Assembly (NCBI GenBank): GCA_030612025.1
Contig: JAUWOR010000005.1
Coordinates: 32,001-96,000 of the forward strand
From: Dehalococcoidia bacterium
Lineage (GTDB): Bacteria; Chloroflexota; Dehalococcoidia; GIF9; AB-539-J10
Length of the DNA stretch: 64,000 nt
Direction: 5' to 3'
Positions 29,293 to 44,692 of this stretch are shown here, piece after piece (positions within the stretch are counted from its first letter, which is position 1; each line of letters starts with the position of its first letter). The notes beneath the pieces were generated by a model. That model saw only the letters and a list, made by a program, of their open reading frames with translations, did no database searches and was not told the DNA's origin. The translations under genes were made by a program, and so were the position numbers.

Positions 29293-29362
29293 CTAAATCT
29301 GCCTCAAGTATCAAAGTGAAATCTTGATACTTTCTTTCCCTATTTGTCAACCAGTTTTCACT
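29292..29362. repeat. Island-junction repeats duplicated at 35375-35419 and 35205-35228
   Basis: tctaaatctgcctcaag..gtgaaatc.tgata recurs at 35375; cctatttgtcaaccagttttcact (24 bp) is identical at 29339 and 35205. Confidence 0.85.
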
Positions 29363-29651
29363 AAATAAGCGATTTTCATTGGTTAGGAAAAAGGTAATTT
29401 TTGTTGAATTAAGTCTCAGCATGGAAAACAAATAGGCGATGTTGTATTTATAGAGGGAACAGAAAGTGCCGTTTTCAGATTCTGGGTCTCAGATATCATT
29501 GCACACTACTCGCTATCTATAACCTCTTTGGTGAGTATCTAATTATAAAAAGCAGCCTTATGCTCAAATACTTATATCTCTCCAGTTTGTTTGGGGTAGT
29601 GCTGAGTGGTGTCACATTTGGATTCGTCGACTGGGAGAGAGCTTGATTATC

Positions 29652-30074
29652 TCACCCACCCCTTTTACATTCGTACTCGCCTGTCAGAAACTCGTGGCTA
29701 ATGCCATTCTGGATTGTTATTTCATCACCCACTACTGTTATCGTGGAGTGCCCTACGGTGACATCGCCGTATATATCATCAAAGTACTCCCAGCCCTTAG
29801 GCCAAAGGCCTTCCTCTGAGGGCCTTGATTTCCCATCGATAACACTATCACCATCCCAATCACAAAAGCGGATATAATTCACTCGTTCGCTATCCCGATA
29901 GTACTCAATTTCGGCGACAAGGCCGCTTGGACTTAGCGATTCAACAGTGATCTTGATAGTTTGGGTATATGTACCTGCACTGCATCCCGAGAATAGAATT
30001 ACCACTGTAGTTAATACCGAAGCTACAATTACCAAAGCATGTAGTTTCCCTTTCCATATGCCATTCTTTATCAT
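29652..30074 (-). CDS. Hypothetical lipoprotein
   Basis: Signal peptide ending LFSGC; DWDGDSVIDG resembles a Dx[DN]xDG loop; ATG 30074 preferred. Confidence 0.6.
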   Translation of the reverse strand: MIKNGIWKGKLHALVIVASVLTTVVILFSGCSAGTYTQTIKITVESLSPSGLVAEIEYYRDSERVNYIRFCDWDGDSVIDGKSRPSEEGLWPKGWEYFDDIYGDVTVGHSTITVVGDEITIQNGISHEFLTGEYECKRGG

Positions 30075-30574
30075 GTTAGGCTTTCTTTCCATTTGAAAAT
30101 TCTCCTGGGATTCTTCGCTCCACATTGGAACAGCAGTCTCACTGCTTGCGGTAATCTCTGCAACGCTTGTAAGGTATGCTGCGCCTAGAGTTGCCATTAT
30201 TCTACCACATGGTTCCGGCTTCTTGAAAGAGGATCTCCTGTTTGCACATTGTTGGTTTTGGCTTTTGTTTACGAACTATCACCATTATAAGCTTTCACTA
30301 TGAGCGGTTACTGGATCCAGCTAAACAATATGAGGGTTTATTGGGAATGCCCAGGTCTCCCTAACCAGCTGGTGAAATATTCTCCCGACAACCACGCAGA
30401 CTCTGGCTGATAGCGGGAGTAGTTTTCACCGAGCACGGCTTTGCTCTATAAGGATGGATGTGTTATTGTGTTGCTTATACTGGCTTCAGGTTCGTTCAAT
30501 AATCTATGTGAGATGGAAGCCAGCGAGTAGTGTAACCATGTCAGCTATGGTTTAGAAAGGTTGGGTAGAATAGA

Positions 30575-33361
30575 TTGAGTTCATTTGATCAGAGGAAATG
30601 GCAACGCTGGTTTTCCAAGATCGGAGGCGAGGAACCTGTACGACCTGCCCGGCGCGGAGGCGCCCCCAAGGCAATCATAATCATAGCCGTTGTCTTGGCT
30701 TTATTCATTGTCTTGGGTATAGCAAAGGGGTTCTACACTGACTGGTTATGGTTTAGCAGCCTGGGTTATGGCAGTGTCTATACCACTATCTTGAGAACCA
30801 GAATATTGCTCTTCTTCTCCGCGGCTATCATCTTTTGCATCTTGCTTTTAGGGAACCTAGTCCTGGCTACGCGCCTGGCACCCAAGACTGAAGCACATTT
30901 CTGGCCTTGGGCTATAGTACGTCGGCTACAACAGACCCTCAAGTTAGGTGTTATCTTGGGAACAGCACTGCTCAGTATAATATTTGGACTGGTGGCCCAG
31001 GGCAACTGGGAGGTTGTGCTGCGGTTCTTCAGCAGGCAGCCATTTGGCATCACTGACCCAATCTTCCATAAGGAGATTGGCTTCTACGTCTTCTCGTTGC
31101 CTTTCCTTAACATGCTGCGAAGTTGGGTCCTGGGCGCGCTGATAATCACCCTTCTTGGCAGTGCTGGAGTATATCTTCTGAGCTATGCGGCGCAGCGGCT
31201 TAAGTTCGACTTTGCCAGGCCGGTGCTAGCCCATGTTGGTGGACTGGCCATGGCTATACTTGGCCTTTTCGCCTGGGGTTACTGGCTTGGCATCTGGGAG
31301 TTAGTCTTCTCCGAACGAGGAGTGGTCTTCGGCGCCAGCTATGCTGATATGCATGCCAAACTTCCAGCGCAGTGGATACTCTTGGTAGTGGTGCTCGTGG
31401 TCATGGGAGTCATGCTGGTTTCTGTATTGAAACACAAATTTCGCTGGCCTCTCTACGCCATTGGGGGATGGATAGCAGCAGCCATCATCGCTGGAGGGAT
31501 ATTCCCCGCCGTGGTACAGCGTCTTCAAGTGGAGCCCAACGAGCTGGCCCGCGAGAGGCCCTACATCGAGTACAATATCCAATCCACCAGAGAGGCCTTC
31601 GCCCTGAGCCGGATTGAGGAGGAGCCCTTTCCTGCGGAGGGAACTCCGAGTTACCAGGATATAGTCCAAAATGAGGAGACCATCAATAACATCAGGCTCT
31701 GGGACCCACGCCCGCTAAAGGACACCTATAACCAGATCCAGTCCTTTCGGCTTTACTATGACTTCCATGATGTTGATATCGACCGCTATATCATTGATGG
31801 TGAGTACCGGCAGGTCATGCTATCGGGTCGGGAATTATCGGCGGAGAAATTGGCCGAGGAGGCGCAGACCTGGGTCAACCGTCGGTTACAGTTTACCCAT
31901 GGCTATGGTGTTGCCCTGAGTCCGGTAAATGAGGTCACTGTTGAGGGGCTGCCGGTATTGCTGGTAAAGGATATCCCCCCCGTTGGTAACTTCGATATAG
32001 AGCGACCGCAGATATACTTTGGGGAAAAGACTGATAATTACGTGATTGTGAAAACAAATACCCAGGAATTTGACTATCCTATGGGCGATGAGAATGTCTA
32101 CGGTCACTATGAAGGGACAGGCGGAGTTAGCATCAGCAGCTTCGTCCGCCGAGTGGCGTATGCCTGGCAATTTGCTGATTTTAATATCCTTATAAGTGGT
32201 GAGTTAACTCCTGAGAGCAGTGTCCTCTATTATCGGAATATCAGAGAGAGGGTGAACCACCTGGCACCATTTTTGCAACTGGACAATGATCCCTATCTAG
32301 TGATAATGGATGGGAGGTTATTCTGGATACAGGATGCCTATACCACCACTGAGCGCTATCCTTATTCTGAGCCGCATGGGAGTGGGCTAAACTATATTCG
32401 CAACAGCGTTAAAGCAGTTATTGATGCCTACAATGGCAGTGTAACCTTCTATATCACCGACCCAGAGGATGCTTTGATACGGACATACCAGGCTATCTTC
32501 CCCGAGCTCTTTGTCCCCGCTGAACAGGCGCCCGAGTCCTTGCGAGCCCACTTCCGTTATCCCGAAGATATGTTCAATATTCAGGCCTCGGTATACCAAA
32601 GCTACCATATGAGAGATGCCCGGGTATTCTACAATAAGGAAGACCTGTGGGCTATACCCAAAGAGCTCTATTTCGGCCAAGAACAGCCTATGGATTCCTA
32701 CTACATCATCATGCGCCTGCCAGATGAGGAGAGGGAGGAGTTCCTGCTGATGTTGCCCTTCACCCCGGTGAACAAGAATAATACCATTGGCTGGCTGGCT
32801 GCCCGCTCTGATGGAGAAAACTACGGGAAGCTGCTTGCCTACCTTTTCCCCAAGGAGCGGCTGGTGTATGGTCCTAGCCAGATCGAGAACCGAATCCAGC
32901 AGGATACCGTCATCACTGAGCAGCTTGCCCTGTGGGGTCGCGGTGGTTCTCGGGTTATCCGAGGCAACCTGCTGCTGATTCCTTTAGGCAAGTCCATCCT
33001 GTATGTGGAGCCAGTCTTCCTCCAGGCGGAGGGCGGTGGGCTGCCACAGCTAAAGCGAGTTATTGTAGTTGCCGGCGACCAGATAGCTATGGAACCCACG
33101 TTGGAGGAAAGCCTTGCCGTTATCTTTGGTACGGAGGCGATACCGCCTGAGGAACCTGAGGTTGAGCCACCGACTCCGGGAGAGCCAGAGGAAGCGCTAA
33201 GCGCGGAGATAGCCAGTCTAATTGAGGAGGCGCAACAGCATTATGACAGGGCTCAGCAGTACCTCAAAGCAGGTGATTGGACTGGCTACGGGGAAGAACT
33301 GGATGCCCTGAAGGCGGTGCTGGATCAGCTGGCGGAACTTATTGCTGAAGAGAAACGATAG
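30575..33361 (+). CDS. UPF0182 family membrane protein
   Basis: YTDWLWFSSLGY, DPIFHKEIGFYVFSLP, NIRLWDPRP, FTHGYG, HFRYPEDMF, VIRGNLL. Confidence 0.95.
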   Translation: MSSFDQRKWQRWFSKIGGEEPVRPARRGGAPKAIIIIAVVLALFIVLGIAKGFYTDWLWFSSLGYGSVYTTILRTRILLFFSAAIIFCILLLGNLVLATRLAPKTEAHFWPWAIVRRLQQTLKLGVILGTALLSIIFGLVAQGNWEVVLRFFSRQPFGITDPIFHKEIGFYVFSLPFLNMLRSWVLGALIITLLGSAGVYLLSYAAQRLKFDFARPVLAHVGGLAMAILGLFAWGYWLGIWELVFSERGVVFGASYADMHAKLPAQWILLVVVLVVMGVMLVSVLKHKFRWPLYAIGGWIAAAIIAGGIFPAVVQRLQVEPNELARERPYIEYNIQSTREAFALSRIEEEPFPAEGTPSYQDIVQNEETINNIRLWDPRPLKDTYNQIQSFRLYYDFHDVDIDRYIIDGEYRQVMLSGRELSAEKLAEEAQTWVNRRLQFTHGYGVALSPVNEVTVEGLPVLLVKDIPPVGNFDIERPQIYFGEKTDNYVIVKTNTQEFDYPMGDENVYGHYEGTGGVSISSFVRRVAYAWQFADFNILISGELTPESSVLYYRNIRERVNHLAPFLQLDNDPYLVIMDGRLFWIQDAYTTTERYPYSEPHGSGLNYIRNSVKAVIDAYNGSVTFYITDPEDALIRTYQAIFPELFVPAEQAPESLRAHFRYPEDMFNIQASVYQSYHMRDARVFYNKEDLWAIPKELYFGQEQPMDSYYIIMRLPDEEREEFLLMLPFTPVNKNNTIGWLAARSDGENYGKLLAYLFPKERLVYGPSQIENRIQQDTVITEQLALWGRGGSRVIRGNLLLIPLGKSILYVEPVFLQAEGGGLPQLKRVIVVAGDQIAMEPTLEESLAVIFGTEAIPPEEPEVEPPTPGEPEEALSAEIASLIEEAQQHYDRAQQYLKAGDWTGYGEELDALKAVLDQLAELIAEEKR

Positions 33362-33425
33362 CGTATTACTTTAACACTATGGCTGATTGTTACACATCTC
33401 AAGGATATAGATCATGACCAGCAGT

Positions 33426-33752
33426 TTAGTTTCTTCTTTGTCTTACTCTGCTACTGAAGCAGCCACCTCTCTTGTCACCATAGGAGCCCGTGCCTCTGTT
33501 CTTAGAAAGAGCGAGGGCCTGAATAACATCAATCGCCCTATCCCTTAGTGATTTTCCATTGAGGGCAGTGATTGCGGCTTGACCTTCAGACTGTGATGTC
33601 ATTTCAACAAATCCATATCCCCTAGATTGGCCACTACCAATATACTTGTCGTTCATGATGGTTACAGATAGCACTTCTCCGAAAGCCATGAATTCTCGTC
33701 GCAGTTCCTCCTCAGTCGCCTCGAGAGATAAGTTACCTACATATATATTCAT
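33426..33752 (-). CDS. RRM RNA-binding protein (Rbp type)
   Basis: RNP2 IYVGNL, RNP1 RGYGFVEM; start moved to MNIYV after an AAAGGGGG RBS. Confidence 0.9.
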   Translation of the reverse strand: MNIYVGNLSLEATEEELRREFMAFGEVLSVTIMNDKYIGSGQSRGYGFVEMTSQSEGQAAITALNGKSLRDRAIDVIQALALSKNRGTGSYGDKRGGCFSSRVRQRRN

Positions 33753-33880
33753 GTTGCCCCCCTTTCGCGGTAACGGGGTTATTCTTGGCCCGCTGTTTGT
33801 CACTAACGCCTGAACTAATAGCCCTTTGGAGTTATGAATACATTTTATGTGCCTTAAGCAGAAATAAATGAAGAGGGAGT

Positions 33881-34198
33881 TTAATATCTTCTCTGTCTTC
33901 CTCCGCTAAAGCCGCTGCCTCTCCTGCCACCATACGACCCGTCGCTTCTGTTATCAGAGCGAGGTCGAGCCGCATTAACAGTTAACATTCGATCCTTTAA
34001 AGTTTTCCCGTTGAGGCCAGTAATTGCAGCTTGACCTTCAGACACCGATGGCATTTCAACAAACCCGAATCCTTTTGGCTGTCCACTATACTTGTCCGTT
34101 ATGATATTTACAGATTCAACCTTCCCAAAAGCCAGGAATTCTTGGCGTAATTCCTCCTCAGTTACCTCATATGATAAGTTACCCACATAGATTTTCAT
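33881..34198 (-). CDS. RRM RNA-binding protein with Gly/Arg-rich tail
   Basis: IYVGNL, KGFGFVEM, tail GGRRGSGFSGGRQRRY; AAGGAG RBS. Confidence 0.92.
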   Translation of the reverse strand: MKIYVGNLSYEVTEEELRQEFLAFGKVESVNIITDKYSGQPKGFGFVEMPSVSEGQAAITGLNGKTLKDRMLTVNAARPRSDNRSDGSYGGRRGSGFSGGRQRRY

Positions 34199-34310
34199 AT
34201 TAGTGCTCCTTTCGCTTAATCTCGTAACTATTTGCCGAGGGTCTCGCCAGCATATCAAGTACCCAAGCAGAGTATGACCATAGTCATCAGCCTTTTGGTT
34301 GCTTTCTGGT

Positions 34311-34496
34311 TTACCCACAACGGCGCCTTCGTCTGGCGCTCTTTTGCGCTTTCATGCGTGCCACCTCCCCCTTGGATAAAAAATGATTATGGGCCTTTGC
34401 CTCGCGCAGAATTCCACTCATTTGCACTATCCTTTGAAAGCGACGCAGCAGGGAATCTTGGGATTCACCTTCACGTATCGAAACTTCCATTGACAT
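34311..34496 (-). CDS. rpsU: 30S ribosomal protein S21
   Basis: VSIREGESQDSLLRRFQR...GILREAK..F.SKGE..R.K...RRRRR. Confidence 0.85.
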   Translation of the reverse strand: MSMEVSIREGESQDSLLRRFQRIVQMSGILREAKAHNHFLSKGEVARMKAQKSARRRRRCG

Positions 34497-34572
34497 GACA
34501 CATCACCACATTCTAGAGACATGCACGGGCCAGATATCTCCAGCCCATGTATGTCTAAGGGCTCAAACCAGT

Positions 34573-34878
34573 TTATCTACCTGGTCTGACTTTACGGTAG
34601 CAATCGCTACAATACACTGGCTTATCACCGCGAGGTTCAAAGGGTACTTCGGTGTCTTTGCCGCACTCGGCGCATATTGCAGGAAACATTTGGCGTGGGG
34701 CCCCGTAGCTGTGGCCACTATTTCCGTATCGCTCTGCCTTCCTTGCCTGGCGACACGAGGGACAGCGCTTGGGCTCATTAGTATAGCCCTTAGATTGAAA
34801 AAACTCTTGTTCCTCAGCGCTGAAAGTGAAGGCAGTCCCACAATCGGAACACTGGATCGACTTGTCCTGAAAACTCAT
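34573..34878 (-). CDS. Zinc-ribbon / CxxC-x17-CxxC domain protein
   Basis: CSDCG.FTFSAEEQEFF..KG..NEPKRCPSCR and CAECGKDTEVPFEP..DKPVYCSDCY; AGGAGG RBS. Confidence 0.9.
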   Translation of the reverse strand: MSFQDKSIQCSDCGTAFTFSAEEQEFFQSKGYTNEPKRCPSCRQARKAERYGNSGHSYGAPRQMFPAICAECGKDTEVPFEPRGDKPVYCSDCYRKVRPGR

Positions 34879-34988
34879 TAGATGACCTCCTCTCTTCGAA
34901 ATTTTAGTTAGAGCTCCGGTCATCCAACACTTTGGGAAATCTGTGGTGATTCAAGTATGTAACAACCTAAACTGAAACTACTAAGTAA

Positions 34989-35017
34989 ATTATACACCAA
35001 AGCGACCCACTTTGCAA
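34989..35017 (-). promoter_or_regulatory. Sigma70-type promoter of the Zn-ribbon/rpsU/RRM operon, followed by a ~100-nt leader
   Basis: Minus-strand TTGCAA-17 nt-TATAAT. Confidence 0.7.
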
Positions 35018-35364
35018 ATAAATAGCCTAACCCTGTTAGTAAGAAGAACGCCACAACTAAAATCCAATGATTTTTGCTGGACACTGATGACGTGATTTAT
35101 CGCTTACTGCCTCACAGTACGTCGCCTAATTGGTAACAACATGATGGAAAGTGCAGTTTTCTAGTTACCTTCAAGCACTGGGGTGTAGCCTTGCTATTTA
35201 CCCTCCTATTTGTCAACCAGTTTTCACTGAACAGGTTACGCCTTGTGAATTCTAATGATGATTCGCAAAGCAATAATATTCCTAATTATACTATCTCAGG
35301 AATTTATCAACTTTTCCCGTCTATCCTGAATGCCCTGCCTAGGATTTTCAATTTCAACGTGGCT

Positions 35365-35460
35365 TTATTCTTCGTCTAAATCTGCCTCAAGCGTCGAGGT
35401 GAAATCCTGATATTTTCCCTCTCTTAGCCTTTGGAAGAACAAATCATAGCTTTCCACTTT
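35365..35460 (-). pseudogene. 3' gene stub, resembling the C-terminus of a type III-like restriction (Res) subunit
   Basis: KVESYDLFFQRLREGKYQDFTSTLEADLDEE*, no start codon, abuts the radical SAM stop. Family assignment is from recall only. Confidence 0.5.
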
Positions 35461-36679
35461 AGCTTTTATATGCCTTCATTTTTTCTCGGTGGAAAATGTG
35501 TTCTTCAGGTTGCTCTATGATATATTTGAATTCATTTACATCTTTTCCAAAGGCCCTCTCAAAGAATGGCCTTTTGGGCCCCACTACACCATGTGTAGCA
35601 TGTAAAATGCATTGTATGCCTCTCAATTGCTGCTTAGTCCAATGAGGATTATTGACATGCTTTCTATCCTTAGCATCCAAGGGGATAAATCTCATCGGGA
35701 AGGAAAAAATGTTTAGACCCAATTCTTCGTTTAATTCAATATTTATTCTTAATCTTTCATAGAAGTCTTCAGGGGTATCGTTATAGTTAAATAATATGAA
35801 GTTCGAAAGGTGTTTAATTCCATATTTATGAGCGAGGCGTATCTTCTCTATATATAGTCTTTTGAGTTCAATATGATCGAAAGCTATCCTTAAAGGCTTA
35901 ATAGCAATCTCACTTAGAAGTGCCATCTTTTCTTCTGTGAGCAATTTTGCATCTACTCCTTGGTTAAAGTCGATATAACGAAATCTTCCTTTAAACTTAG
36001 CTCCCTTGTAAAATCCATATTTCCCAATTTCCTCTATTATTTTTCGAAATTTGGAGGATGCCAAAACATTATTATCAAGGAGGATTAAGTCTTTCTTATC
36101 AGGGTCGATTTGTTTTTCCAAAGGTATGAAATGAACATACTCGGGTTCTAGTTTGGGCACTGCACAGTACGGACAATGCCATATACATCCTTTGGTCATA
36201 TACCCAATACTTGCGTCATTGGTATAATAATCGTATATGCCATCAAATAGTTTATAGTCTGGTGCCAACCTATCAACTTCTTCCCACAGTCCAAAGTGAG
36301 GTGTTATGCCAGTTTCCCTTCTTACATCATCCTGTAAGAGGGAACCAAGAATTCCTCCAACTTGAATATTACTTTCGTTAGCCTTGTTCCGTTGATAGAA
36401 TTTGATCGTGTTTATTGTGATATTCCACTGAAATGTAAACATAGTAGTAATGTAAATAGCATCCCATTTTTGGTCTTTTAATTCTTTATTCATGCCTTTC
36501 CAAAATTTCACTTCATCCCCTTGCTGCTTGTGGTAAGTCGAGATTTTCATTAATCCAAGGGGTGGATATTTGGCTTTGTAGGCTGGTTCTATGAGTAGCA
36601 CCCTCTTCGGTTTTTTGACTCGAATATTAGCTCTGATTGGTAGATCAGTGCTTAAACTCAATTTGTTGTCCTTTAACAT
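35459..36679 (-). CDS. Radical SAM protein with an N-terminal B12-binding-like domain
   Basis: CIWHCPYC (CxxxCxxC); LIEP..KYPPLGLMKISTYHK..GDEV; LDNNVLAS; DFNQGVD; RIAFD. Confidence 0.88.
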   Translation of the reverse strand: MLKDNKLSLSTDLPIRANIRVKKPKRVLLIEPAYKAKYPPLGLMKISTYHKQQGDEVKFWKGMNKELKDQKWDAIYITTMFTFQWNITINTIKFYQRNKANESNIQVGGILGSLLQDDVRRETGITPHFGLWEEVDRLAPDYKLFDGIYDYYTNDASIGYMTKGCIWHCPYCAVPKLEPEYVHFIPLEKQIDPDKKDLILLDNNVLASSKFRKIIEEIGKYGFYKGAKFKGRFRYIDFNQGVDAKLLTEEKMALLSEIAIKPLRIAFDHIELKRLYIEKIRLAHKYGIKHLSNFILFNYNDTPEDFYERLRINIELNEELGLNIFSFPMRFIPLDAKDRKHVNNPHWTKQQLRGIQCILHATHGVVGPKRPFFERAFGKDVNEFKYIIEQPEEHIFHREKMKAYKS

Positions 36680-36683
36680 CTTG

Positions 36684-38957
36684 CTACCCTGACTCTTCCG
36701 TTTCTTCTAACCCAATGCATTCCCTTATCCATTTCATTCCCCAATACCCCAAATTTTTGCTAACTTCAGTGCATTGCTGTTCACGGTGATGTCCATAAGT
36801 ATCTCTTAGCTCCTCGAAGGATTTAAATTGAACTGAGGTTATATCCTTATCCTTAGTGAATATATGCTTAAATCGCTGCTCCCAATTCGGATTGTAAACT
36901 ATGATTTCTCTTAAGTGTGGGGTAGCAATGTAATCTAACCTTCTCTCTGGAGGGAGTAAAAGCAAAACATCTTTTTGCCGCGGTTCTCTCTCTCCTCTTT
37001 CTTTTATACGCTCATTAGCATAATTCTTTATGCCCTCAGGGATACCCCGCCGCCACCAAGCCTCGCCATGGAGGCTTTTCAATTCTTTGGCTATGAAGTT
37101 CCTCAGATTTATTTCTGTATCTCCTAAGAGCCGCCTAATATCTTCATTGCTTAATTTCTTTGGCCTTGGAGGCGTCCAGGTCCGCAGCAGTTCAAGACCA
37201 AATCCATCAAATTCTTCCTTAATCCACCATGTCATTTGTTTAGCGTTTTCAGTCAATGGCCCTTTACCGACTTGCTTCCTAATCGCACTTCGCTCTTCAT
37301 CGGACTTATTTTTTAACTTCGCTATTATGGGGTTGAGTAATTTCTTTGTCTCATCCCGGAACTTGCTCAGGTCTTTTTTCTTATAAATTCCCTCTTGTCC
37401 TGCATACCTTAGGTAAAGCATAAGCTGTCTGAAGATAATAAAAAGTATGCGAACGCCGATATTCGAGCGAAGCCGCCCTTCCTCTCCCTTTTGCCAGTCT
37501 TCAGGGAAGGACACCCTAATGACATCAAAGTATGCTTTCAACCTTTCACAGGCAAAATCGACTGTCGAATCATAATCATCTTTATAAACTAACACCTCAT
37601 TTTTATTAATTAGCCTATTCTCTTTGATTCCCTCGCATACTGTTGTCATTGTCAGATTGGGTATCTCTTTGCCCTTGGGAAGCATACTTGGAATTTTAGT
37701 GTGATTATAAAGAGGTGAGTCACTATCCGAGTTCAATTTCCTAGCTATCAATGAAATAGCCCGTTTAATCTGATGCTCCTCTTCCTCTGAGTCTGCGTAA
37801 ATGACTGGGTATAAATCCCACAGAAGGTTAGGAGTAACTGCTTTTTGCTCCCTATTTATATCAACAAAAAGGTTTGCTTGATCTTTCGGAGATAAAGACT
37901 CGAAGGCAAGAACAGGAACTGTATCCTTCATTTTCCTTTCGTTATTGGCATATCCATATAGTCTATGCTGACCATCAATAATCCAGGCGCTTCCGTAATA
38001 GTGAGGAAATTCAAGCATTCCACACACTACATTTCCTGCCTGTTTTTCCTTCTCAAACCTATGGAAAGTCGGTTTTTGGGTGAAGTTAAGGATGATGTTA
38101 TTTGGGAAATACCCACCTTTTGATATGAATTCATCGATTTTCTTTAAACGAGGTTTTTTAACTATTCTCTGATATGAATCACTGACTTCGCTAGGAGAGC
38201 TCTCTCTGCGATGCACATAAGCAACTTTAAGCAATTCTTCAGGTTTAATAATAAAGCTATAATACTTTGCATCTCCTCTACCACCAAGGATAGCGGGTAC
38301 TTTGATATTCCTTAGGGCTGGGATTTTCTTATTCCTGAATAGGATGGTGTAAATTTGAAATTTTGCACTTGCTCCTAAATGCTTAATAAGGTCACCATAA
38401 GATTTGAGGTCTCCTTCCTTCCACACAGCATTTTGGTTATTTTTAGCGAGAACTTCATTACCTTCACTCCATTTAATACCTCGTGTTGCTATTACAAAAG
38501 AAATTCGAATATGTCTATCATTGTATTTCGCTTTAATCGAAGCGGTAATATCCCTCTTTAAATCGGAGATTTCGTGAATGTCCCTCCGTGAGATTTGTGT
38601 CTCATGGGTGCTAGCTTTACATTCCACAACAAATGCATCGTTTCCACTCTTAGCAAACACATCAATCTGTTTCTGGATCGGCCCTGCCTGTATTCTAAAG
38701 TTTCTGTCTTTATTCATTTCTGCAAAGCCCGTATCGTAAAAAAGCAACCAAACCTCATCTTCTAGCAATTCATCGAGTTCCTTCTCTTTAGATAATCTTG
38801 CCTTATTCTTCGGTTGCTTCGGTTTGAGCTCCCATCCGTGTTGTAAATAGGAATCCCGCGCAGCTTGAGAGACTGTTAGTTCGTGATATTTCTTCTTTCG
38901 TTGTCTCGCAGTTTTATTCAGCTCTTCGTTTTGGACTAAATCTCCGTAGAAGTACAA
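36684..38957 (-). CDS. DGQHR (DndB/ParB-like) protein with an N-terminal PD-(D/E)XK-like nuclease and a C-terminal Swt1/HEPN-like domain
   Basis: QIDVFAK..VVECKAS; YQRIVKKPRL..FPNNIIL..IIDGQHRLYGY..LFVDINREQKAV; EINLRNFI..WW..LDY..LRDTYGH (Rx4H). Confidence 0.85.
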   Translation of the reverse strand: MYFYGDLVQNEELNKTARQRKKKYHELTVSQAARDSYLQHGWELKPKQPKNKARLSKEKELDELLEDEVWLLFYDTGFAEMNKDRNFRIQAGPIQKQIDVFAKSGNDAFVVECKASTHETQISRRDIHEISDLKRDITASIKAKYNDRHIRISFVIATRGIKWSEGNEVLAKNNQNAVWKEGDLKSYGDLIKHLGASAKFQIYTILFRNKKIPALRNIKVPAILGGRGDAKYYSFIIKPEELLKVAYVHRRESSPSEVSDSYQRIVKKPRLKKIDEFISKGGYFPNNIILNFTQKPTFHRFEKEKQAGNVVCGMLEFPHYYGSAWIIDGQHRLYGYANNERKMKDTVPVLAFESLSPKDQANLFVDINREQKAVTPNLLWDLYPVIYADSEEEEHQIKRAISLIARKLNSDSDSPLYNHTKIPSMLPKGKEIPNLTMTTVCEGIKENRLINKNEVLVYKDDYDSTVDFACERLKAYFDVIRVSFPEDWQKGEEGRLRSNIGVRILFIIFRQLMLYLRYAGQEGIYKKKDLSKFRDETKKLLNPIIAKLKNKSDEERSAIRKQVGKGPLTENAKQMTWWIKEEFDGFGLELLRTWTPPRPKKLSNEDIRRLLGDTEINLRNFIAKELKSLHGEAWWRRGIPEGIKNYANERIKERGEREPRQKDVLLLLPPERRLDYIATPHLREIIVYNPNWEQRFKHIFTKDKDITSVQFKSFEELRDTYGHHREQQCTEVSKNLGYWGMKWIRECIGLEETEESG

Positions 38958-39024
38958 TTACTACCTTGCTAATGTGGCTGTTTGCATATCTAGTTTATCA
39001 TATAGCCAAAGCACAAATGGCAAA

Positions 39025-39150
39025 TTAGGTAAGCTCATATTCCTTCTTGGTTTCAAACGGGATTATGTAGCGGTAGCTATCGGGCAAAGGTTTGCCTTCC
39101 TTTAAGCACTGGGTGATAAATTCAATTTCATTCTGGTTTAGTCGTTCCAT
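39025..39150 (-). pseudogene. 5' gene stub, resembling the N-terminus of a type III-like DNA methyltransferase (Mod)
   Basis: MERLNQNEIEFITQCLKEGKPLPDSYRYIIPFETKKEYELT*; second copy at 40260-40412. Family assignment is from recall only. Confidence 0.55.
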
Positions 39151-39323
39151 AAGAATCCCTTGTTCCCGTTAATCCCTTACACTGCTTTGTTGGTGTATTT
39201 GAACTTTGGCTTAAACATCTCTCTTTAATTATATCAGAGCAAGGTCGCTGTTTTGGAGACGGCTTTGACATTTCGACTCAACCTTACCATAGTTCGCCAG
39301 CCCATATAAGCTTAGTAAGCTTC

Positions 39324-39794
39324 TCATCGTTTTTCATATTCGGTGTCTCCTACCAAAACATAATCGCCGATCCATTTTACCTGAGGTAATTTGCCCCTGA
39401 CTGCTTGGTAAAATGGTCTGTCCCCGGTCCAGAGCTCACAACCCTCGCTTTCAGCCAGAGCAAGATAAGAGGCATCGTAAGCAGACAGGTTGTGCTCTAA
39501 CGCTAATTCCAAAATCCTCTCCGGCTCCGCCTCTTTTAATTCTACTCCTAGCTCCAAGAGGGTATCCATAACTTCCAGTGCTTTGTCTGAAGCTAGTCTT
39601 TTCATATTGGTGGCAGTAAGGATGCCGTTTACCACCTCGTAGATTAAAAGATAGGGGGCTATCGCTTTGACAGCTTCTAGGGCATAAAAATCGTTTCTTA
39701 GCGCAGTGGCTTGCGGAATATACTCTTCATCGTCAAGCTGCCATTTCAAGACCACTGAGGTGTCTACGACTACCAGCCTTGGTTCTTGTGGCAT
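39324..39794 (-). CDS. vapC: VapC-family PIN toxin
   Basis: VVDTSVVLKW, YEVVN, LSAYDASYLALAE, LWTGD. Confidence 0.9.
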   Translation of the reverse strand: MPQEPRLVVVDTSVVLKWQLDDEEYIPQATALRNDFYALEAVKAIAPYLLIYEVVNGILTATNMKRLASDKALEVMDTLLELGVELKEAEPERILELALEHNLSAYDASYLALAESEGCELWTGDRPFYQAVRGKLPQVKWIGDYVLVGDTEYEKR

Positions 39795-39799
39795 ATTTT

Positions 39800-40069
39800 C
39801 TATCTCCGCCGGCCTTCCTCAACGAGTTCAGCGGTAGAAATGCCAATGGGGCCTATCTCCTGCCTGAGCTTGTCCATACGAGATAATAAAGCCATCTTAT
39901 TCTTGTCATCGGCCTCAGCGCTTCTCTCGCCATCCCTGACGAGGCGCTCCTCGATAGCCCGGGCACAATAATCAGTCACAGTCATTCCTCGCTTGGCTGC
40001 TGCTACTTTAATCTGTCTCTTAATTTCCTCATCTTCAAGATAGAGGCCAAGCCTTGCTTTGTTTGCCAT
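39800..40069 (-). CDS. Antitoxin (ribbon-helix-helix type), partner of VapC
   Basis: IKRQIKVAAAKRGMTVTDY; C-terminal STAELVEEGR; GGAGGTG RBS before ATG 40069. Confidence 0.8.
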   Translation of the reverse strand: MANKARLGLYLEDEEIKRQIKVAAAKRGMTVTDYCARAIEERLVRDGERSAEADDKNKMALLSRMDKLRQEIGPIGISTAELVEEGRRR

Positions 40070-40088
40070 TTCTATCACCTCCAGGCTA

Positions 40089-40117
40089 AGTTTAACGACA
40101 AAGCAACTTGTCGTCAA
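40089..40117 (-). promoter_or_regulatory. TA promoter with a palindromic operator over the spacer
   Basis: Minus-strand TTGACG-17-TAAACT; inverted repeat ACGACAA-n6-TTGTCGT at 40095-40114. Confidence 0.7.
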
Positions 40118-40259
40118 ATAGCTCTACTTATTCATATGATATGCCACGCTGACTGCTTTCTTGTCGGTTCCTTTTTCCCTGAGATTGCTTCGCTTCGCGC
40201 GCAATGACATCTCTTGTTTGCGGGAAGACCTATAAGCCAGATTATGGGTTCTCTTACCC

Positions 40260-40412
40260 TTATCGCTGGAAGAAAGCAGTTACTGGCGATATGCGGCTGT
40301 CAGTGGACTTTCGAGCAAGCAGGACTATATTGCGATAGCTATCTGGCAAAGGCTTGCCTTCCTTCAAACAATGAGTGATAAATTCAATTTCGCTCTGACT
40401 TAGTCGTTCCAT
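40260..40412 (-). pseudogene. Second 5' stub of the putative Mod gene
   Basis: MERLSQSEIEFITHCLKEGKPLPDSYRNIV, then loss of similarity to the 39150 copy. Confidence 0.55.
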
Positions 40413-40442
40413 TTTCAAACTCCGATAGCAGGAGTGTGAAAA

Positions 40443-40847
40443 TCATTCCTTTGCACCTTGCATCATTTTTAGTAGCGTCCTTTTGGCCTCTGCTACAAAC
40501 TTTCGGGCACAGTCAATTTGCTCCACCGCATCCTCCTCAGTGATTTTAACAAAATCTCCATAGTCAGCATCTTCTCTTATCCCTTTTGCCTCTCTGAGGA
40601 ACTTACTAAATCCTGTGGGGAAAAGCCCAGCTTTTACAATGTGCTGGTTAAACAAAGAAATGACTCCAGAATGTTTACTGCTATCCAGTTCTTTTAATGC
40701 TAAAAGCGCTCTTGCTGAGGTGAACATGGCGTAATAACTCCTATTGACTGCCAAGCTGAAATGTCTTTGTTTGAAAGAATCTTCAGCCTCTTTCAGCATC
40801 TCCTTTGCCTTCTCCAGCCTGTATTTAGCTAAATTTACGTGGCTCAT
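40443..40847 (-). CDS. HEPN-domain protein (MNT-HEPN pair)
   Basis: AVNRSYYAMF, KHSGVISLF, REDADYG. Confidence 0.88.
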   Translation of the reverse strand: MSHVNLAKYRLEKAKEMLKEAEDSFKQRHFSLAVNRSYYAMFTSARALLALKELDSSKHSGVISLFNQHIVKAGLFPTGFSKFLREAKGIREDADYGDFVKITEEDAVEQIDCARKFVAEAKRTLLKMMQGAKE

Positions 40848-41188
40848 AAAAGAATTCCCTCCTTTTCCACATTTTCGAAGAAGAAAGAGCCTAATTCTTT
40901 GTTCTTCTGGTATTCAAATAGGTCGTAAAGAACAGGAGATAGAGGTAAGCCGTATTCGATATCATAATTAGCAGTTATCTCTGCTAATTTACTACGAATA
41001 TATGATGTCTTTTCCTTCACCAGGATAAATATGTCAATATCCGAATCTTGATAGAAATCTCCTCTTGCTTTAGAGCCGAAAAGCCGTATAGATACAATTT
41101 CATCTCCTAATTTTTCTTTTAGCTCTTTTACAAAGGAGTTTATTACTGCTCCTTCTCTTTTATTTAAGCAGCCTAATTCGCTCTCCAT
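40844..41188 (-). CDS. Minimal nucleotidyltransferase (MNT)
   Basis: LFGSKARGD...SDIDI (GS-x10-DxD). Confidence 0.9.
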   Translation of the reverse strand: MESELGCLNKREGAVINSFVKELKEKLGDEIVSIRLFGSKARGDFYQDSDIDIFILVKEKTSYIRSKLAEITANYDIEYGLPLSPVLYDLFEYQKNKELGSFFFENVEKEGILL

Positions 41189-41190
41189 AA

Positions 41191-42012
41191 TTATCCTTGC
41201 CTCTTTAAGTTTAAGAAATTCAACTCGTATTCTTCAATCAGCTTTTCATCGGCAAAGCTAAAGTATCTATTATCGCCTATTATGATATGGTCTAAGACCT
41301 TAATCTGCATAATATTGCCAGCGAAGACTAAATCCTGGGTTATTTGTTTGTCATTATCGCTGGGCTCAGGATTTCCCGCGGGGTGATTGTGGACAAAGAT
41401 TAGAGCGGCAGCATTGTATTTGATGGCCCTCTCGATGATTTCCCGGGGATAGACGGCGCTAGCAGTTAATGTTCCCTCGAAGAGGTCATCCACTTCGATA
41501 ACTTGATTTTGGGCATTGAGGAACATAACTTTGAAGGTCTCTTTTTTGAGGTCTCGCATAGAGAGGTAGAGATAATCGAAAACCTCTTTTGAGGACTTAC
41601 AATAGGGTTTATTAAGAATCTGCTCCTCGAGGAACTTCTGGGATAGTTCCTGTATCAGCTTGATGGCGAAGGCGTTGGCTGGACCAATACCTTTAATCTC
41701 TTGCAGTTCTTCACTAGAAGCGGCTAAAACTCCCCGCAAGGTTTTGAACCTTTTTATTGCTTCTTTGGCCTGTGGTTTGCAATCGCCACGCGTACCACCC
41801 AGGGTCAGTAATAGTTCAACAATCTCGTAATCAAGGAATGCCGCCAGTCCAGACTGATTGAATTTCTCCCGTAGCCGTGCTCTATGCCCTTCCCGTGTTA
41901 ATTGAGGATTGCTTGCCTTAGGCGTCTCCTGAGGTTCCCGTTGCATAACCCCTTTCCCGCTTTTTGGCTGTAAGCCAAGTTTTGTCAATTTTGCCCCCTT
42001 TGGCAAAAGCAA
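41191..42012 (-). CDS. radC: RadC/JAB family protein
   Basis: GHRARLR, HhH KGIGPA, VYPREI, HNHPAGNPEPSDND, VLDHII; true start may be ATG 41946. Confidence 0.93.
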   Translation of the reverse strand: MLLPKGAKLTKLGLQPKSGKGVMQREPQETPKASNPQLTREGHRARLREKFNQSGLAAFLDYEIVELLLTLGGTRGDCKPQAKEAIKRFKTLRGVLAASSEELQEIKGIGPANAFAIKLIQELSQKFLEEQILNKPYCKSSKEVFDYLYLSMRDLKKETFKVMFLNAQNQVIEVDDLFEGTLTASAVYPREIIERAIKYNAAALIFVHNHPAGNPEPSDNDKQITQDLVFAGNIMQIKVLDHIIIGDNRYFSFADEKLIEEYELNFLNLKRQG

Positions 42013-42026
42013 AGAATTCCCCTTTA

Positions 42027-43232
42027 CTATTCGGATGGTTTTGGAGGTTGCACTCTCGCTTGGGTTCTCACCGGCAAACCCCAGATATGAATGAAGCCGG
42101 GAGAGGCGCTCTGGTCAAAGACATCACCTTTATCATAAGTAGCCAGGCTGAAATTGTAGAGGGAATAGGGAGACTTTCTACCCACTATTCGGCAATTACC
42201 TTTGTGAAGCTTGACCTTCACTATGCCAGTAACGTATCTTTGCGAACTTTGCACATAAGCAGCTAAGTCTTGGCGAAGACCGGTAAACCATAATCCATTG
42301 TAAATAAGGTCAGCATATTCGCTAACTACTTTTGCCTTAAAGCGGAGCTGCTCTTTGGTCAGCACCAGATCCTCTAAAGCTTGATGAGCTTTGAGCAGCA
42401 CAGTAGCCGCTGGTGCTTCATAAACCTCCCTCGATTTTATGCCCACTAATCTGTTTTCCACATGGTCAATCCTGCCTATGCCATGCTCACCGGCTAACTC
42501 GTGAATTCTCTGAACAAGCGTGACCCCATCCAATTTTTCGTCATCAAGGCTTACTAGTATTCCTTTTTCAAAACCGATCTCCACATAGCTAGGTTGTCCT
42601 GGTGTTTCTTCAAGTGATTTTGTCCAGGCAAAGACATCCTTGGGAGGCTCACTCCAGGGGTCTTCCAGGGCGCCGCATTCAATGCTCCTTCCCCACAAAT
42701 TTTCGTCAACGGAATATGGGCTAGCCGTTGTAGCTGGAACAGGGATATTATGCTCCTGGGCATAGGCAATTGTTTGCTCTCTGGTCATATTCCACTCCCT
42801 GGCTGGAGCTATCACTTTGAGCTCAGGAGCCAGAGCGGCTATGCTTACATCGAATCTTACTTGGTCGTTGCCCTTGCCGGTGCAGCCATGAGCTACAATG
42901 GTAGCTCCTTCTTTTTTAGCTGTAGCCACTAAAAGTCGGGCGATGAGGGGGCGCCCTAGCGCGGTGGCTAGCGGATATTGACCCTCATAAAGGGCATCAG
43001 CTTGAAGAGCGGGGAAAACAAAGGATTTTATAAAAGTTTCTTTGGCATCAACTACCAGTGCTTTTGTCGCTCCTATATCGAGTGCCTTTTGCCTAATAGC
43101 TTCGAGATTGCTATAGCTACCTATATCCGCAGTAAGAGTAATAACCTTCAGGTTATATCTTTCCTTGAGCCACTTTATGGCTACAGAGGTATCCAGACCA
43201 CCACTGTAAGCTAAAACTGCTTTGTCTGACAT
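42027..43232 (-). CDS. argG: Argininosuccinate synthase
   Basis: LAYSGGLDTS, HGCTGKGNDQVRF, ENRLVGIKSRE; AGGAGG RBS before ATG 43232. Confidence 0.97.
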   Translation of the reverse strand: MSDKAVLAYSGGLDTSVAIKWLKERYNLKVITLTADIGSYSNLEAIRQKALDIGATKALVVDAKETFIKSFVFPALQADALYEGQYPLATALGRPLIARLLVATAKKEGATIVAHGCTGKGNDQVRFDVSIAALAPELKVIAPAREWNMTREQTIAYAQEHNIPVPATTASPYSVDENLWGRSIECGALEDPWSEPPKDVFAWTKSLEETPGQPSYVEIGFEKGILVSLDDEKLDGVTLVQRIHELAGEHGIGRIDHVENRLVGIKSREVYEAPAATVLLKAHQALEDLVLTKEQLRFKAKVVSEYADLIYNGLWFTGLRQDLAAYVQSSQRYVTGIVKVKLHKGNCRIVGRKSPYSLYNFSLATYDKGDVFDQSASPGFIHIWGLPVRTQARVQPPKPSE

Positions 43233-43252
43233 CTTACCTCCTATTGTCATTG

Positions 43253-43384
43253 AGCCCGTTTAATTTTGATTCCCCGTTCAATTTCAGCCATCTCGGACGT
43301 GTTTCACCCCCAAATTTTTGTAGTTGCCTGATTTATCAGGCACGGTCGCCCAATAAATTGGGCAACTACATTTTTAAACACCCT
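43253..43384 (-). mobile_element. 132-bp MITE-like element, copy 3
   Basis: Reverse complement of 10420-10551; same length, a few substitutions. Confidence 0.8.
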
Positions 43385-43435
43385 CTCATTATAAGAACCT
43401 GTGAAGCGATTCCCAGATGTGATGAGATTGCTTCA

Positions 43436-44692
43436 CTACGCTCGCAATGACATTAAAGTATCTTCTAAAATGTCAATCGCCTTGCCCACCTCCCTTTCGG
43501 TAATAATGAGGGGGGGCATAAAACGGATAGTGTTTGGCTTCACTTTGTTAACTAGCAAGCCCCTTTTTAAACAAGCCAAGGCTATTTCCTCAGCGATTTC
43601 ACCCTTGAATTCCAAAGCTATTAGGAGTCCTCTACCCCTCACCTGAGTGATGAAATCAAATTGCTGCTTCAAGCTCTCCAGCTTAGCCATAAAATACTTT
43701 CCCACCTGTTTAACCTTTCCCGGTATATCATCCTCGATAATGTATTTCATGGTGGCGTAAGCAGCAGCGCAAGCTAAAGGATTACCACCAAAGGTAGAAC
43801 CATGCTCACCAGGGGCAAAGACAGAAGCATGCTCTTTGGCTAAGAAAGCACCGATAGGCACACCGCTGCCTAATCCCTTAGCTAGAGTCATTATGTCTGG
43901 CTCCACATTATATTGCTCATAGGCAAAAAGCGTTCCTGTTCGACCAATGCCTGTCTGGATTTCATCCAGAATAAGGAGAATACCCTTTTCGTGACACCAT
44001 TCCTCTACCTCCTTAAGGTAGTTGTCGTCTGGCACATTGACTCCGCCTTCGCCCTGGATTGGCTCTAGCATTACACCGCAGGTGCGGGCGGTAGTGGCTG
44101 CTCTGATTTTTTCTACATCGTTGTAATCAACATTGATGAAACCGGTGGGCAAAGGTATGTAGGGCTGCTGGAATTTACTTTGACCCGTGGCAGCAGTCAT
44201 AGCTAAAGTTCGCCCGTGGAAGGAACTATGAGTGGTGATAATATCATAAGCACCATTGAGGCGGAGCTTCCCATATCTGCGGGCTAGTTTCACGGCACCC
44301 TCGTTAGCCTCAGCGCCGCTATTACAGAAGAAAACCCTATCGAGGCAACTATTCTGTATCAAGATTTGGGCTAATTGTATCTGTGGAATGGTATAAAATT
44401 GATTCGAGGCCTGTATAAGGGTTTTAGCCTGCTTCTCCAAAGCTTCAACTACCACTGGTGGGCAGTGACCCAGGCTATCGACTGCCCAACCACCAACAAG
44501 GTCGAGGTATTTTTTGCCTTGATCATCCCAGACCCAAGCTCCTTCACCTCGAACCAAGGTCACAGGAAACCTGTTAAACGTTCTGAGAAACAACTTTTGC
44601 TCTAATTCTTGCCAGTTATCGTGGTACAATGCTTGTTCCTCCACTCTCTTTTTCAACCTCCTTGAGCAAAGCGTGAGGCATTCTGCCGTCAA
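43436..44692 (-). CDS. argD: Acetylornithine aminotransferase
   Basis: NSGAEANE, FHGRT, EPIQGEGG, DEIQTG, TLAKGLG; the ORF-track start overlaps argB, so the true start is probably downstream. Confidence 0.93.
   Translation of the reverse strand: MTAECLTLCSRRLKKRVEEQALYHDNWQELEQKLFLRTFNRFPVTLVRGEGAWVWDDQGKKYLDLVGGWAVDSLGHCPPVVVEALEKQAKTLIQASNQFYTIPQIQLAQILIQNSCLDRVFFCNSGAEANEGAVKLARRYGKLRLNGAYDIITTHSSFHGRTLAMTAATGQSKFQQPYIPLPTGFINVDYNDVEKIRAATTARTCGVMLEPIQGEGGVNVPDDNYLKEVEEWCHEKGILLILDEIQTGIGRTGTLFAYEQYNVEPDIMTLAKGLGSGVPIGAFLAKEHASVFAPGEHGSTFGGNPLACAAAYATMKYIIEDDIPGKVKQVGKYFMAKLESLKQQFDFITQVRGRGLLIALEFKGEIAEEIALACLKRGLLVNKVKPNTIRFMPPLIITEREVGKAIDILEDTLMSLRA

Follow-up and report, generated by a model that had tools for sequence, protein, structure and literature searches.

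Two adjoining genes on the minus strand of a 64,000-nucleotide stretch from a Dehalococcoidia bacterium (GenBank assembly GCA_030612025.1, contig JAUWOR010000005.1, positions 32,001–96,000; hereafter the window) were analysed. They encode a three-domain protein of 757 residues (36684..38957, TTG start), with PD-(D/E)xK nuclease, DGQHR/ParB-like and HEPN domains, followed by a radical S-adenosylmethionine (SAM) enzyme of 406 residues (35459..36679, ATG start), hereafter rSAM, which carries a B12-like N-terminal Rossmann domain. We interpret the pair as a horizontally mobile defence cassette of restriction-modification (R-M) type, in which rSAM replaces the methylase and marks DNA, the DGQHR domain helps or targets this reaction, and the large protein restricts unmarked DNA; we hold the arguments for and against this interpretation to be about evenly balanced. 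It is built on direct observations: both proteins have recognisable domains whose catalytic motifs are conserved, the two genes are tightly coupled and recur together, rSAM is re-used in other operons, and rSAM replaces a methylase within one protein family. Accordingly named, the three-domain protein is the predicted restriction or effector subunit and rSAM the predicted DNA-modifying subunit.

In the proposed mechanism, rSAM would use a [4Fe-4S] cluster (C165, C169 and C172), SAM and possibly a corrinoid to put a covalent mark on host DNA, thus taking the place held by a DNA adenine methyltransferase in sister cassettes. Because rSAM lacks a variable, specificity-type segment, the ParB-like DGQHR domain is probably loaded onto DNA, where it would present the target in a nucleoside triphosphate-dependent manner, much as DpdB, a DGQHR ATPase, does for DpdA. 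The PD-(D/E)xK domain of the partner would cut DNA devoid of the mark, and the HEPN RNase domain may serve as a second, possibly abortive, effector. A first-pass annotation, made from the letters of the window, had suggested that the radical SAM enzyme produces either a base mark or a nucleotide signal that the DGQHR protein senses; the mark-then-read part fits the mechanism outlined here, and the nucleotide signal gained no specific support.

Recurrence of the pair and replacement of a methylase

Homologs of rSAM were found at E ≤ 1e-3 among 6759 of 8000 scored candidates, the best 120 being 69–100% identical; clustering at 50% identity left 2130 representatives at E ≤ 1e-3, 1080 at E ≤ 1e-10 and 311 at E ≤ 1e-30. 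The carriers are anaerobes and their phages, and the distribution is patchy (5 of the 401 genomes of a phylum sample). Gene neighbourhoods were compared at 102 loci, comprising the window, 8 genome contigs, 3 loci from the phylum search, 10 viral-contig loci and 80 metagenome loci, the latter being the 80 closest to the query out of 350 confirmed matches. Those with at least 1 kb upstream of rSAM (86 of 102) were taken as informative. At 16 of these 86 loci, and at one partial locus, a three-domain protein of 750–790 residues lies directly upstream of rSAM, as in the window, at a spacing of −14 to +61 nt (type A). The pair therefore recurs; a lack of co-occurrence in other genomes had been named beforehand as counter-evidence. 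The flanking genes vary from locus to locus while the pair stays intact; many are housekeeping genes and a few are of defence type (HNH, GmrSD, EVE, RadC). No DNA methyltransferase was present among 41 neighbour proteins of 14 type A loci, the nearest approach being a generic Methyltransf_25 protein encoded two genes downstream at locus L083.

Some type A neighbours belong to families that read or cut modified DNA, with an EVE protein just upstream at L083 (2511–3383) and a GmrSD-type enzyme just downstream at L046 (5163–6950). Nuclease genes also adjoin the pair, of HNH type at L004 (4989–5495) and resembling a Holliday resolvase at L024 (1020–1511).

A reverse search seeded with the three-domain protein was run on the 401-genome phylum sample and on viral contigs. 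Full-length relatives of 758–811 residues, 26–33% identical to the protein of the window, were recovered from 9 further genomes and 7 viral contigs. At all 12 loci tested, the relative adjoins a DNA adenine methyltransferase, often with overlapping genes, which is of MT-A70 type in 5 cases and of D12 type in 7; outside this set stand L121 and two loci at which the three-domain gene is broken by a stop codon (L114 and L115). rSAM is absent at E ≤ 1e-20 from all 9 genomes that hold these methylase-type relatives. At viral locus L122, which shares its contig with L097, rSAM adjoins a three-domain relative in place of the methylase. In a tree of 29 three-domain proteins, 28 of which keep an Rx4H motif within their last 160 residues, one rSAM-linked clade holds the protein of the window and a second is nested among D12-linked rows; the starred branches force at least two partner switches. 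Such alternation of methylase and rSAM at one operon position, beside members of a single protein family, is the hallmark of non-orthologous displacement. Further, since architectural twins of the three-domain protein pair with ordinary adenine methylases, the DGQHR protein is best described as a generic restriction-type partner of a DNA-modifying gene; the earlier notion that it is specific to the radical SAM enzyme was not borne out.

The two broken genes each carry a single in-frame stop, one TGA and one TAG (L114 in genome G358 and L115 in genome G183). Separately, short DGQHR proteins of ~320–345 residues, closely followed by a protein of 307–327 residues, recur in viral contigs (L125, L127–L130, L132 and L133). 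Four of these followers were examined (L125, L127, L129 and L130) and none gave a Pfam match; they form a distinct recurrent DGQHR pair.

Operon types, fusions and solo copies

Proteins of the rSAM family that are 50–88% identical terminate at least five different operons made from parts of modification-dependent defence systems. Besides type A, these include type B (25 loci), with a ~1000-residue protein bearing a sigma-70 region-4 helix-turn-helix motif, PbeA (8e-211), the DndD-like PbeC (7e-167) and a small PbeD/dnd_assoc_4-like protein, the last two of which are replaced by a BglII-like nuclease in type B' (2 loci). Type C (~15 loci) combines two ~340-residue, weakly ParB-like copies, a 135-residue protein and an SNF2 helicase resembling ZorD, DpdE and DrmD, to which a short DGQHR protein is added at 4 loci. 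A BrxD/SngB-like ATPase, a DrmC-like PLD protein, mad8/HerA-like ATPases and a 413-residue protein make up type D (3–4 loci), and a GHKL ATPase with similarity to the BbrUII/HgiDII restriction enzymes, together with a 335-residue protein, type E (2–3 loci). The spacing to rSAM is operon-like in all main types, often with overlapping stop and start codons. Consequently, the stand-alone and unique pairing envisaged at first pass did not hold up, rSAM being a highly conserved module shared with at least four other operon types, at whose end it likewise stands.

Operon types are scattered on a quick maximum-likelihood tree of 84 rSAM proteins, in which no fewer than 10 changes are needed to account for the 15 type A rows. 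The rSAM of the window groups, with branch support, with one row of type A and one of type D, and a genome of the same genus (G403) carries an 81%-identical rSAM behind a type D operon (BrxD/PLD/HerA) without a three-domain protein. The enzyme is thus exchanged among operon types, even within one genus. Three rare fusions were also found. In P0336, a 777-residue protein from one metagenome-assembled genome, a C5 DNA methylase (PF00145, 5e-57) with all usual methylase motifs is joined in frame ahead of an rSAM part 39% identical to that of the window. In P0323, a DGQHR/DpdB-like C-terminal half (NF041060, 5.9e-7) is fused ahead of rSAM, and in P0360 the ParB-like protein of type C is fused behind it (blastp, 2.9e-20). 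Solo copies occur in three phage-like contigs (L098, L102 and L105), and a solo relative with 36% identity is encoded by a cultured temperate phage, Marinitoga camini virus 1 (L140, KP836355.1, 4998–6080), where it adjoins a resolvase and a convergent HerA plus NurA-like gene pair. Phages also carry orphan methylases, and the solo relatives resemble these in that respect.

The free swapping of partners ahead of rSAM, and these solo copies in phage-like contigs and in Marinitoga camini virus 1, would also be expected if the genes had no joint function and rSAM were the conserved anchor gene of a mobile hotspot, with defence cargo merely landing beside it. Operon-like spacing in all main types, often with overlapping stop and start codons, the persistence of the pair between differing flanks, and the fusions to DGQHR-like, ParB-like and C5-methylase domains speak against such a fortuitous association, which we consider highly improbable. 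We prefer a functional unit with exchangeable partners, and tentatively extend it to the whole family, as a proposal that is possible rather than likely: the B12-type rSAM would be a portable, specificity-free 'M' subunit that makes a new covalent DNA mark and has been recruited by at least five unrelated restriction architectures. With the same reserve, we would count DGQHR-nuclease-HEPN, Pbe/CxC-ABC-DndE, SNF2-ParB, BrxD-HerA-PLD and GHKL operons among the recruiting architectures, and see the role of the mark in telling self from foreign DNA. From the chemistry of structural relatives, a candidate mark may be an alkylated unactivated carbon, for instance a base carbon or the thymine-methyl carbon.

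Two side observations concern the family at large. A gene for a GHKL (Hsp90/MutL-type) ATPase directly adjoins a longer, insertion-bearing form of rSAM (540–700 residues) at loci L099–L103, L106 and L010–L012. Further, the homologs P0334, P0344 and P0373 are split by inteins, recognised by Intein_splicing matches together with a LAGLIDADG or HNH homing-endonuclease domain; inteins are commonly met in strongly conserved genes carried by mobile elements.

Domains of the partner protein

Motif conservation in the 757-residue protein was assessed in an alignment of 28 homologs (38–100% identity), and folds were assigned by aligning an AlphaFold model (predicted local distance difference test score, pLDDT, 87.5) to known structures with VIA. 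The PD-(D/E)xK nuclease domain spans residues ~61–189 (38391..38777, minus strand), which align with the PD-(D/E)xK protein AF1548 (Z 13.2, root-mean-square deviation 2.0, 116 residues) and with the nuclease domains of Card1, Can2, VC1899 and NucS (Z 8.9–9.9); the Pfam families Hjc and NERD both matched below threshold. The E...D...ExK pattern is present on this restriction-endonuclease fold as E66, D99 and E112-C-K114, which are kept in 27, 26, 22 (E112) and 21 (K114) of the 28 homologs, respectively. A CARF-type sensor at the N-terminus was considered and rejected, the alignments with Can2, Card1 and VC1899 beginning at residues 142–164 of those chains, from where on we take them to consist of their C-terminal nuclease halves.

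Residues 222–513 (37419..38294, minus strand) constitute a DGQHR domain of the DndB/DpdB-like kind within the ParB superfamily, identified by TIGR03187 (7.2e-47, 160.4 bits, cut-off 58.85) and supported by Pfam DndB (2e-13) and the DpdB model of PADLOC (2.4e-31). The eponymous motif, D328-G-Q-H-R332, is invariant in 28 of 28 homologs, and residues 229–372 match ParB-like PadC (Z 6.3), sulfiredoxin and KorB (Z 5.5), within a range of Z 5.5–6.3. The C-terminal HEPN domain (residues ~600–755; 36693..37160, minus strand) aligns with AbiF (Z 9.1) and the C-terminal domain of Swt1 (Z 6.7), and matches the PADLOC candidate PDC-M34B (2.3e-9), with Pfam HEPN_Swt1 remaining below its cut-off (17 vs. 27.5 bits). 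Its R718xxxxH723 motif, by which it belongs to the HEPN superfamily, is kept in 28 (R718) and 27 (H723) homologs. Profile score, folds and motif conservation therefore agree with the three domains read at first pass, and the motifs then quoted (IDV..VECK, DGQHR, RDTYGH, CxxxCxxC and PPLGLMK) were all located in the translations.

Structure and possible substrates of the radical SAM enzyme

Two parts are distinguished in rSAM. The B12-binding-like N-domain covers residues ~25–137 with the PPLGLMK motif (36269..36607, minus strand), and the predicted [4Fe-4S] cluster motif, C165xxxC169xxC172 (36164..36187, minus strand), is invariant in 28 of 28 aligned homologs, across which C357 is the only other invariant cysteine. 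Sequence-profile signals are weak, with Radical_SAM at 7e-4 (20.2 bits, cut-off 29.5), BchE at 1e-6 and Pfam B12-binding at 5.8e-3 (16.9 bits, below cut-off). A PDB sequence search with the rSAM profile returned a single, unrelated chain (E 0.5), and a protein atlas search returned only unnamed or 'cobalamin-binding' clusters. A predicted model (pLDDT 73) was compared with known structures by Foldseek and VIA. Foldseek gave MgmA (2.7e-9) and TsrM (4.4e-8), followed by MiaB, OxsB, CysS and TokK; VIA gave AprD4 (Z 19.3), MgmA (17.9), MiaB (16.5), CysS (16.1), TsrM (16.0) and OxsB (15.5). These matches, at Z 14–19 across residues 22–400, cover the radical SAM barrel, and motif and fold together place rSAM in the radical SAM superfamily. 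The N-terminal Rossmann domain of B12-binding type is recognised by its fold, the Pfam match being sub-threshold, with residues 21–137 aligning to AerR (Z 10.7) and the corrinoid protein 1y80 (Z 9.5). The initial description as a B12-like radical SAM enzyme with CxxxCxxC and a PPLGLMK N-domain is in keeping with both the invariance of the motif and the two-domain folds of B12 type.

The N-domain possibly binds a corrinoid. AprD4, the best VIA match, is presumably a member of this fold that works without cobalamin, and no sequence motif is known to decide the binding and use of cobalamin in such enzymes. Windowed conservation runs at 0.69–0.96 over residues 21–406 with no variable segment, so any sequence specificity must come from the partners.

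Among the best structural matches are also MiaB, MtaB and RimO (Z 15.8–16.7), and the HEPN Rx4H motif is the best-kept effector motif of the partner (27–28 of 28 homologs), nuclease residues being lost in 6–7 of 28. Both observations would suit an enzyme that modifies tRNA or rRNA, either shielding it from the HEPN RNase of the partner in a toxin/immunity-like arrangement or stopping translation during infection. A methylthiotransferase of the MiaB/RimO kind was rejected as the identity of rSAM, as its N-domain has no conserved cysteines, and hence none of the three of the auxiliary cluster, and neither TRAM nor UPF0004 matched. The lack of these cysteines and of a TRAM-like RNA-binding domain also argues against RNA modification in general. 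So do the sister cassettes, which carry D12 and MT-A70 methylases, and most of the other rSAM operon types, which gave no HEPN match and carry DNA-directed parts (HKD-helicase, DndD/DndE-like proteins, SNF2, BglII-like nuclease). We consequently regard an RNA substrate as quite unlikely.

The best Foldseek match is MgmA (2.7e-9; VIA Z 17.9), which C-methylates glutamine in a protein, and the two genes are tightly coupled, as would be expected if rSAM post-translationally modified its partner protein to activate or restrain it, much as MgmA and Mmp10 methylate methyl-coenzyme M reductase. Such an activity would require one highly conserved enzyme to act on at least five unrelated partner sets, and it is in our view very improbable.

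Weighing of the evidence for a DNA mark

Several points weigh against a DNA-marking function. The rSAM model is only moderately confident at pLDDT 73; its closest solved relatives act on protein (MgmA) or small molecules (AprD4, TsrM, CysS, OxsB and TokK), while MiaB and RimO act on tRNA and ribosomal protein, none on DNA; and no DNA-binding domain is evident in rSAM. The fusions P0336, P0323 and P0360 are each a single sequence at 90% clustering, and hence anecdotal, the one to a C5 methylase having been met once among the best 120 proteins listed. In the partner, 6–7 of 28 homologs have another residue in place of E112 or K114 of the nuclease motif. With regard to the survey, the ranking of loci by likeness to the query biases the frequencies of operon types. 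Genes were called with a crude open reading frame (ORF) script, and the ORFs were clustered and annotated through cluster representatives; 11 of the 86 informative loci had no called upstream gene and 9 an unclassified one, some of these being artefacts of the ORF caller. rSAM is usually, but not always, the last gene, a close gene on the same strand following it at 27 of the 102 loci. The reverse search reached only distant homologs (26–33% identity); for close homologs there is an indirect hint, in that many of them, judged by eye, agree with rSAM matches in the length of their longest contig. Finally, we infer DNA as the substrate, the identity of the mark and the arm that reads it.

The very high conservation of rSAM (the best 120 of 6759 matches are at least 69% identical), unlike that of ordinary R-M methylases, would also fit a fixed small-molecule substrate, as would the lack of a variable segment. 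rSAM might then be an effector or signal maker that, once activated, converts a nucleotide or metabolite into an antiviral or toxic product in the manner of viperin, or that consumes SAM, with the nuclease or ATPase partners serving as sensors or co-effectors. AprD4, the best structural match (Z 19.3), acts on a small sugar-like molecule, and radical SAM antiviral effectors exist, among them pVips and Ophion OpnA (available part of bioRxiv 10.1101/2025.09.30.679545). On the other side, rSAM takes the place of a DNA methylase in one protein family, its partners are modules paired elsewhere with DNA-marking genes, and one rSAM is fused to a C5 DNA methylase. Moreover, the annotated rSAM operons showed no partner of a kinase, phosphatase or nucleotide-handling kind, and mouse viperin aligns by VIA to the rSAM core only (Z 8.7, residues 154–367). 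We thus deem a small-molecule effector unlikely, and retain the DNA-marking cassette as the working interpretation.

Genomic setting

The two co-oriented genes are separated by 4 nt (36680–36683). The guanine-cytosine (GC) content is 0.36–0.42 across 35000–38999, compared with 0.50–0.54 in the nearby UPF0182 gene and ~0.45 elsewhere. ORF coordinates and base composition hence match the initial description of two co-oriented, closely spaced genes richer in AT than the UPF0182 gene. According to Pfam, the genes on one side of the pair are argJ, argB, argD, argG, radC, an MNT-HEPN pair and a VapBC-like pair; those on the other side encode a zinc-finger protein, S21, two RRM proteins, UPF0182 (plus strand), a 181-residue ORF and argH. 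A promoter/terminator scan yielded site counts that were not above those of shuffled sequences (10 vs. 12.0; 1 vs. 4.3).

No dnd, dpd or methyltransferase gene was found among the 18 ORFs that flank the pair, in agreement with the first reading. Across the genome to which the window belongs (95.6% complete), searches gave no match for TGT/DpdA (PF01702; control positive in 14 of 14 genomes), DndC (TIGR03183) or a C5-methylase profile, and a hypermodifier dependent on 5-methylcytosine was accordingly rejected for this genome. Matches to N6_Mtase, N6_N4_Mtase and D12 are confined to other contigs, the contig of the window having none to these or to C5 profiles; in the MT-A70 search the control matched nowhere, which leaves that search uninformative.

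Within the genus, the flanks are kept at 75–99% protein identity, with argG-radC-MNT-HEPN on one side and the zinc-finger gene on the other, where G403 also keeps the RRM and UPF0182 genes. The intervening stretch varies; it spans 34924–40442 in the window, between the MNT-HEPN pair and the zinc-finger gene. In G403 (L136, 3565–9098) it holds a second RadC-like gene and three unannotated ORFs (596, 466 and 284 residues), and in G404 (L135, 122–7700) a Mod-like adenine methylase (PDB 6k0w, 3.5e-16), an SMC-like ATPase and an 835-residue ORF. rSAM was not found in the same-genus genomes G401, G402 and G404, which are 68–86% complete. Conserved flanks with differing content between them indicate that the cassette sits in a variable defence hotspot, which, along with the low GC content and the presence of rSAM in 5 of 401 genomes, gives it the signature of accessory genes. 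The setting is therefore defence-like, as had been surmised from the adjacent radC and toxin-antitoxin pairs, PADLOC v2 itself having no model for rSAM. As to the further suggestion that the pair occupies the slot of a lost R-M operon, no remnant of one was found in the window, whereas the same slot in G404 does hold the methylase, ATPase and 835-residue ORF just described.

The arginine genes argJ-argB-argD-argG and argH lie ~13 kb apart (window positions 27877–46594), and the stretch between them mixes accessory genes (radC, the two toxin-antitoxin-like pairs and the cassette) with housekeeping genes (S21, two tandem RRM proteins and UPF0182).

Relation to known systems

Searches against PADLOC-DB v2.0.0 gave no match for rSAM at E ≤ 1, and for the partner only DpdB and the candidate PDC-M34B. 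No PADLOC system model was matched by both genes, which sustains the view that the pairing is not a recognised named system. A literature search, with supplements and Krishnan et al. 2020 outside its scope, found no paper in which DGQHR, Pbe, SNF2 or BrxD proteins are described as partners of a B12-type radical SAM enzyme, nor any on methylase-linked three-domain cassettes. The latter share with the window pair the architecture and length of the three-domain protein (758–811 residues) and its tight link to one modification gene, but they have a D12 or MT-A70 methylase as partner instead of rSAM, and their three-domain proteins are 26–33% identical to that of the window.

The Dpd system, in which DpdA, DpdB and DpdC carry out modification and DpdD–K restriction, places 7-deazaguanine in DNA. 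The window pair resembles it in that a DGQHR protein, with DpdB as best PADLOC match (2.4e-31), is encoded beside a predicted modifying enzyme other than a methyltransferase, in a restriction-type context. According to the available part of PMC10164549, the ATPase activity of DpdB is required for DpdA to insert preQ0 into DNA. The window pair differs in that its DGQHR domain is fused to nuclease and HEPN domains, the predicted modifying enzyme is a radical SAM protein and the unit comprises two genes; moreover, the genome lacks TGT/DpdA, and the DpdB equivalog NF041060 scores 104.3 bits against a cut-off of 300. The DGQHR domain is likewise DndB-like (Pfam DndB 2e-13), whereas the genome yields no DndC, neither DndD nor DndE is encoded beside the pair, and TIGR04172 scores 87.9 bits against a cut-off of 450. 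Membership of the Dpd or Dnd systems was thus rejected, no TGT and no DndC being present in the genome.

CxC-ABC systems were reportedly first described by Krishnan et al. in 2020. Pbe/CxC-ABC-DndE operons are related to the cassette through the same rSAM family, which ends operons of PbeA, PbeC (DndD-like) and PbeD (DndE-like) homologs. In the available portion of PMC10853773, these systems are elsewhere associated with genes for phosphorothioation or with C5/N4 methylases, and radical SAM is mentioned there only in connection with DndC. Two further sources touch on single components: the accessible text of PMC7641849 reports a radical SAM gene near EVE in Alteromonadales, which is unrelated to the window pair, and that of the HEPN survey PMC3710099 lists ParB-HEPN fusions and no rSAM. 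From classical R-M systems of types I–III, the pair differs in that no SAM-dependent DNA methyltransferase is found among its neighbours.

As to the enzyme itself, class B radical SAM enzymes (MgmA, TsrM, CysS, TokK and OxsB) and AprD4 share the build of an N-terminal Rossmann/B12-like domain followed by a CxxxCxxC barrel. They differ in that no PDB sequence match was obtained, identities in structural alignments are 8–16%, and none acts on DNA or occurs in defence operons. A B12-like N-domain is foreign to viperins. The window pair, as proposed here, shares with viperin and Ophion a radical SAM enzyme in an anti-phage setting, but viperin-type enzymes produce nucleotide analogues in free form and are partnered by kinases or PHP/PRTase proteins. 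Viperins and Ophion OpnA are radical SAM enzymes inside anti-phage systems, as stated in the available text of bioRxiv 10.1101/2025.09.30.679545. On these comparisons, we would class the pair as a form of modification-based immunity with a new class of modifying enzyme.

Significance

What is new here is the two-gene DGQHR form and the displacement of a methylase by rSAM, which join a radical SAM enzyme with swappable partners to the methylase-linked three-domain cassette. The two-gene form found in the window is the smallest version and hence the one most readily tested and, should it work, most readily turned into an orthogonal tool for marking DNA. Should the substrate prove to be other than DNA, one radical SAM enzyme coupled to many defence architectures would still be a directly testable problem. 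If rSAM does mark DNA, a chemically new type of DNA modification would be at hand, and with it a new R-M-like family of immunity systems. The non-methyl epigenetic defence marks, so far phosphorothioate and 7-deazaguanine, would gain a third member, radical SAM enzymology would acquire DNA as a substrate in the service of defence, and the sharing of one enzyme by so many nuclease and ATPase modules would be explained.

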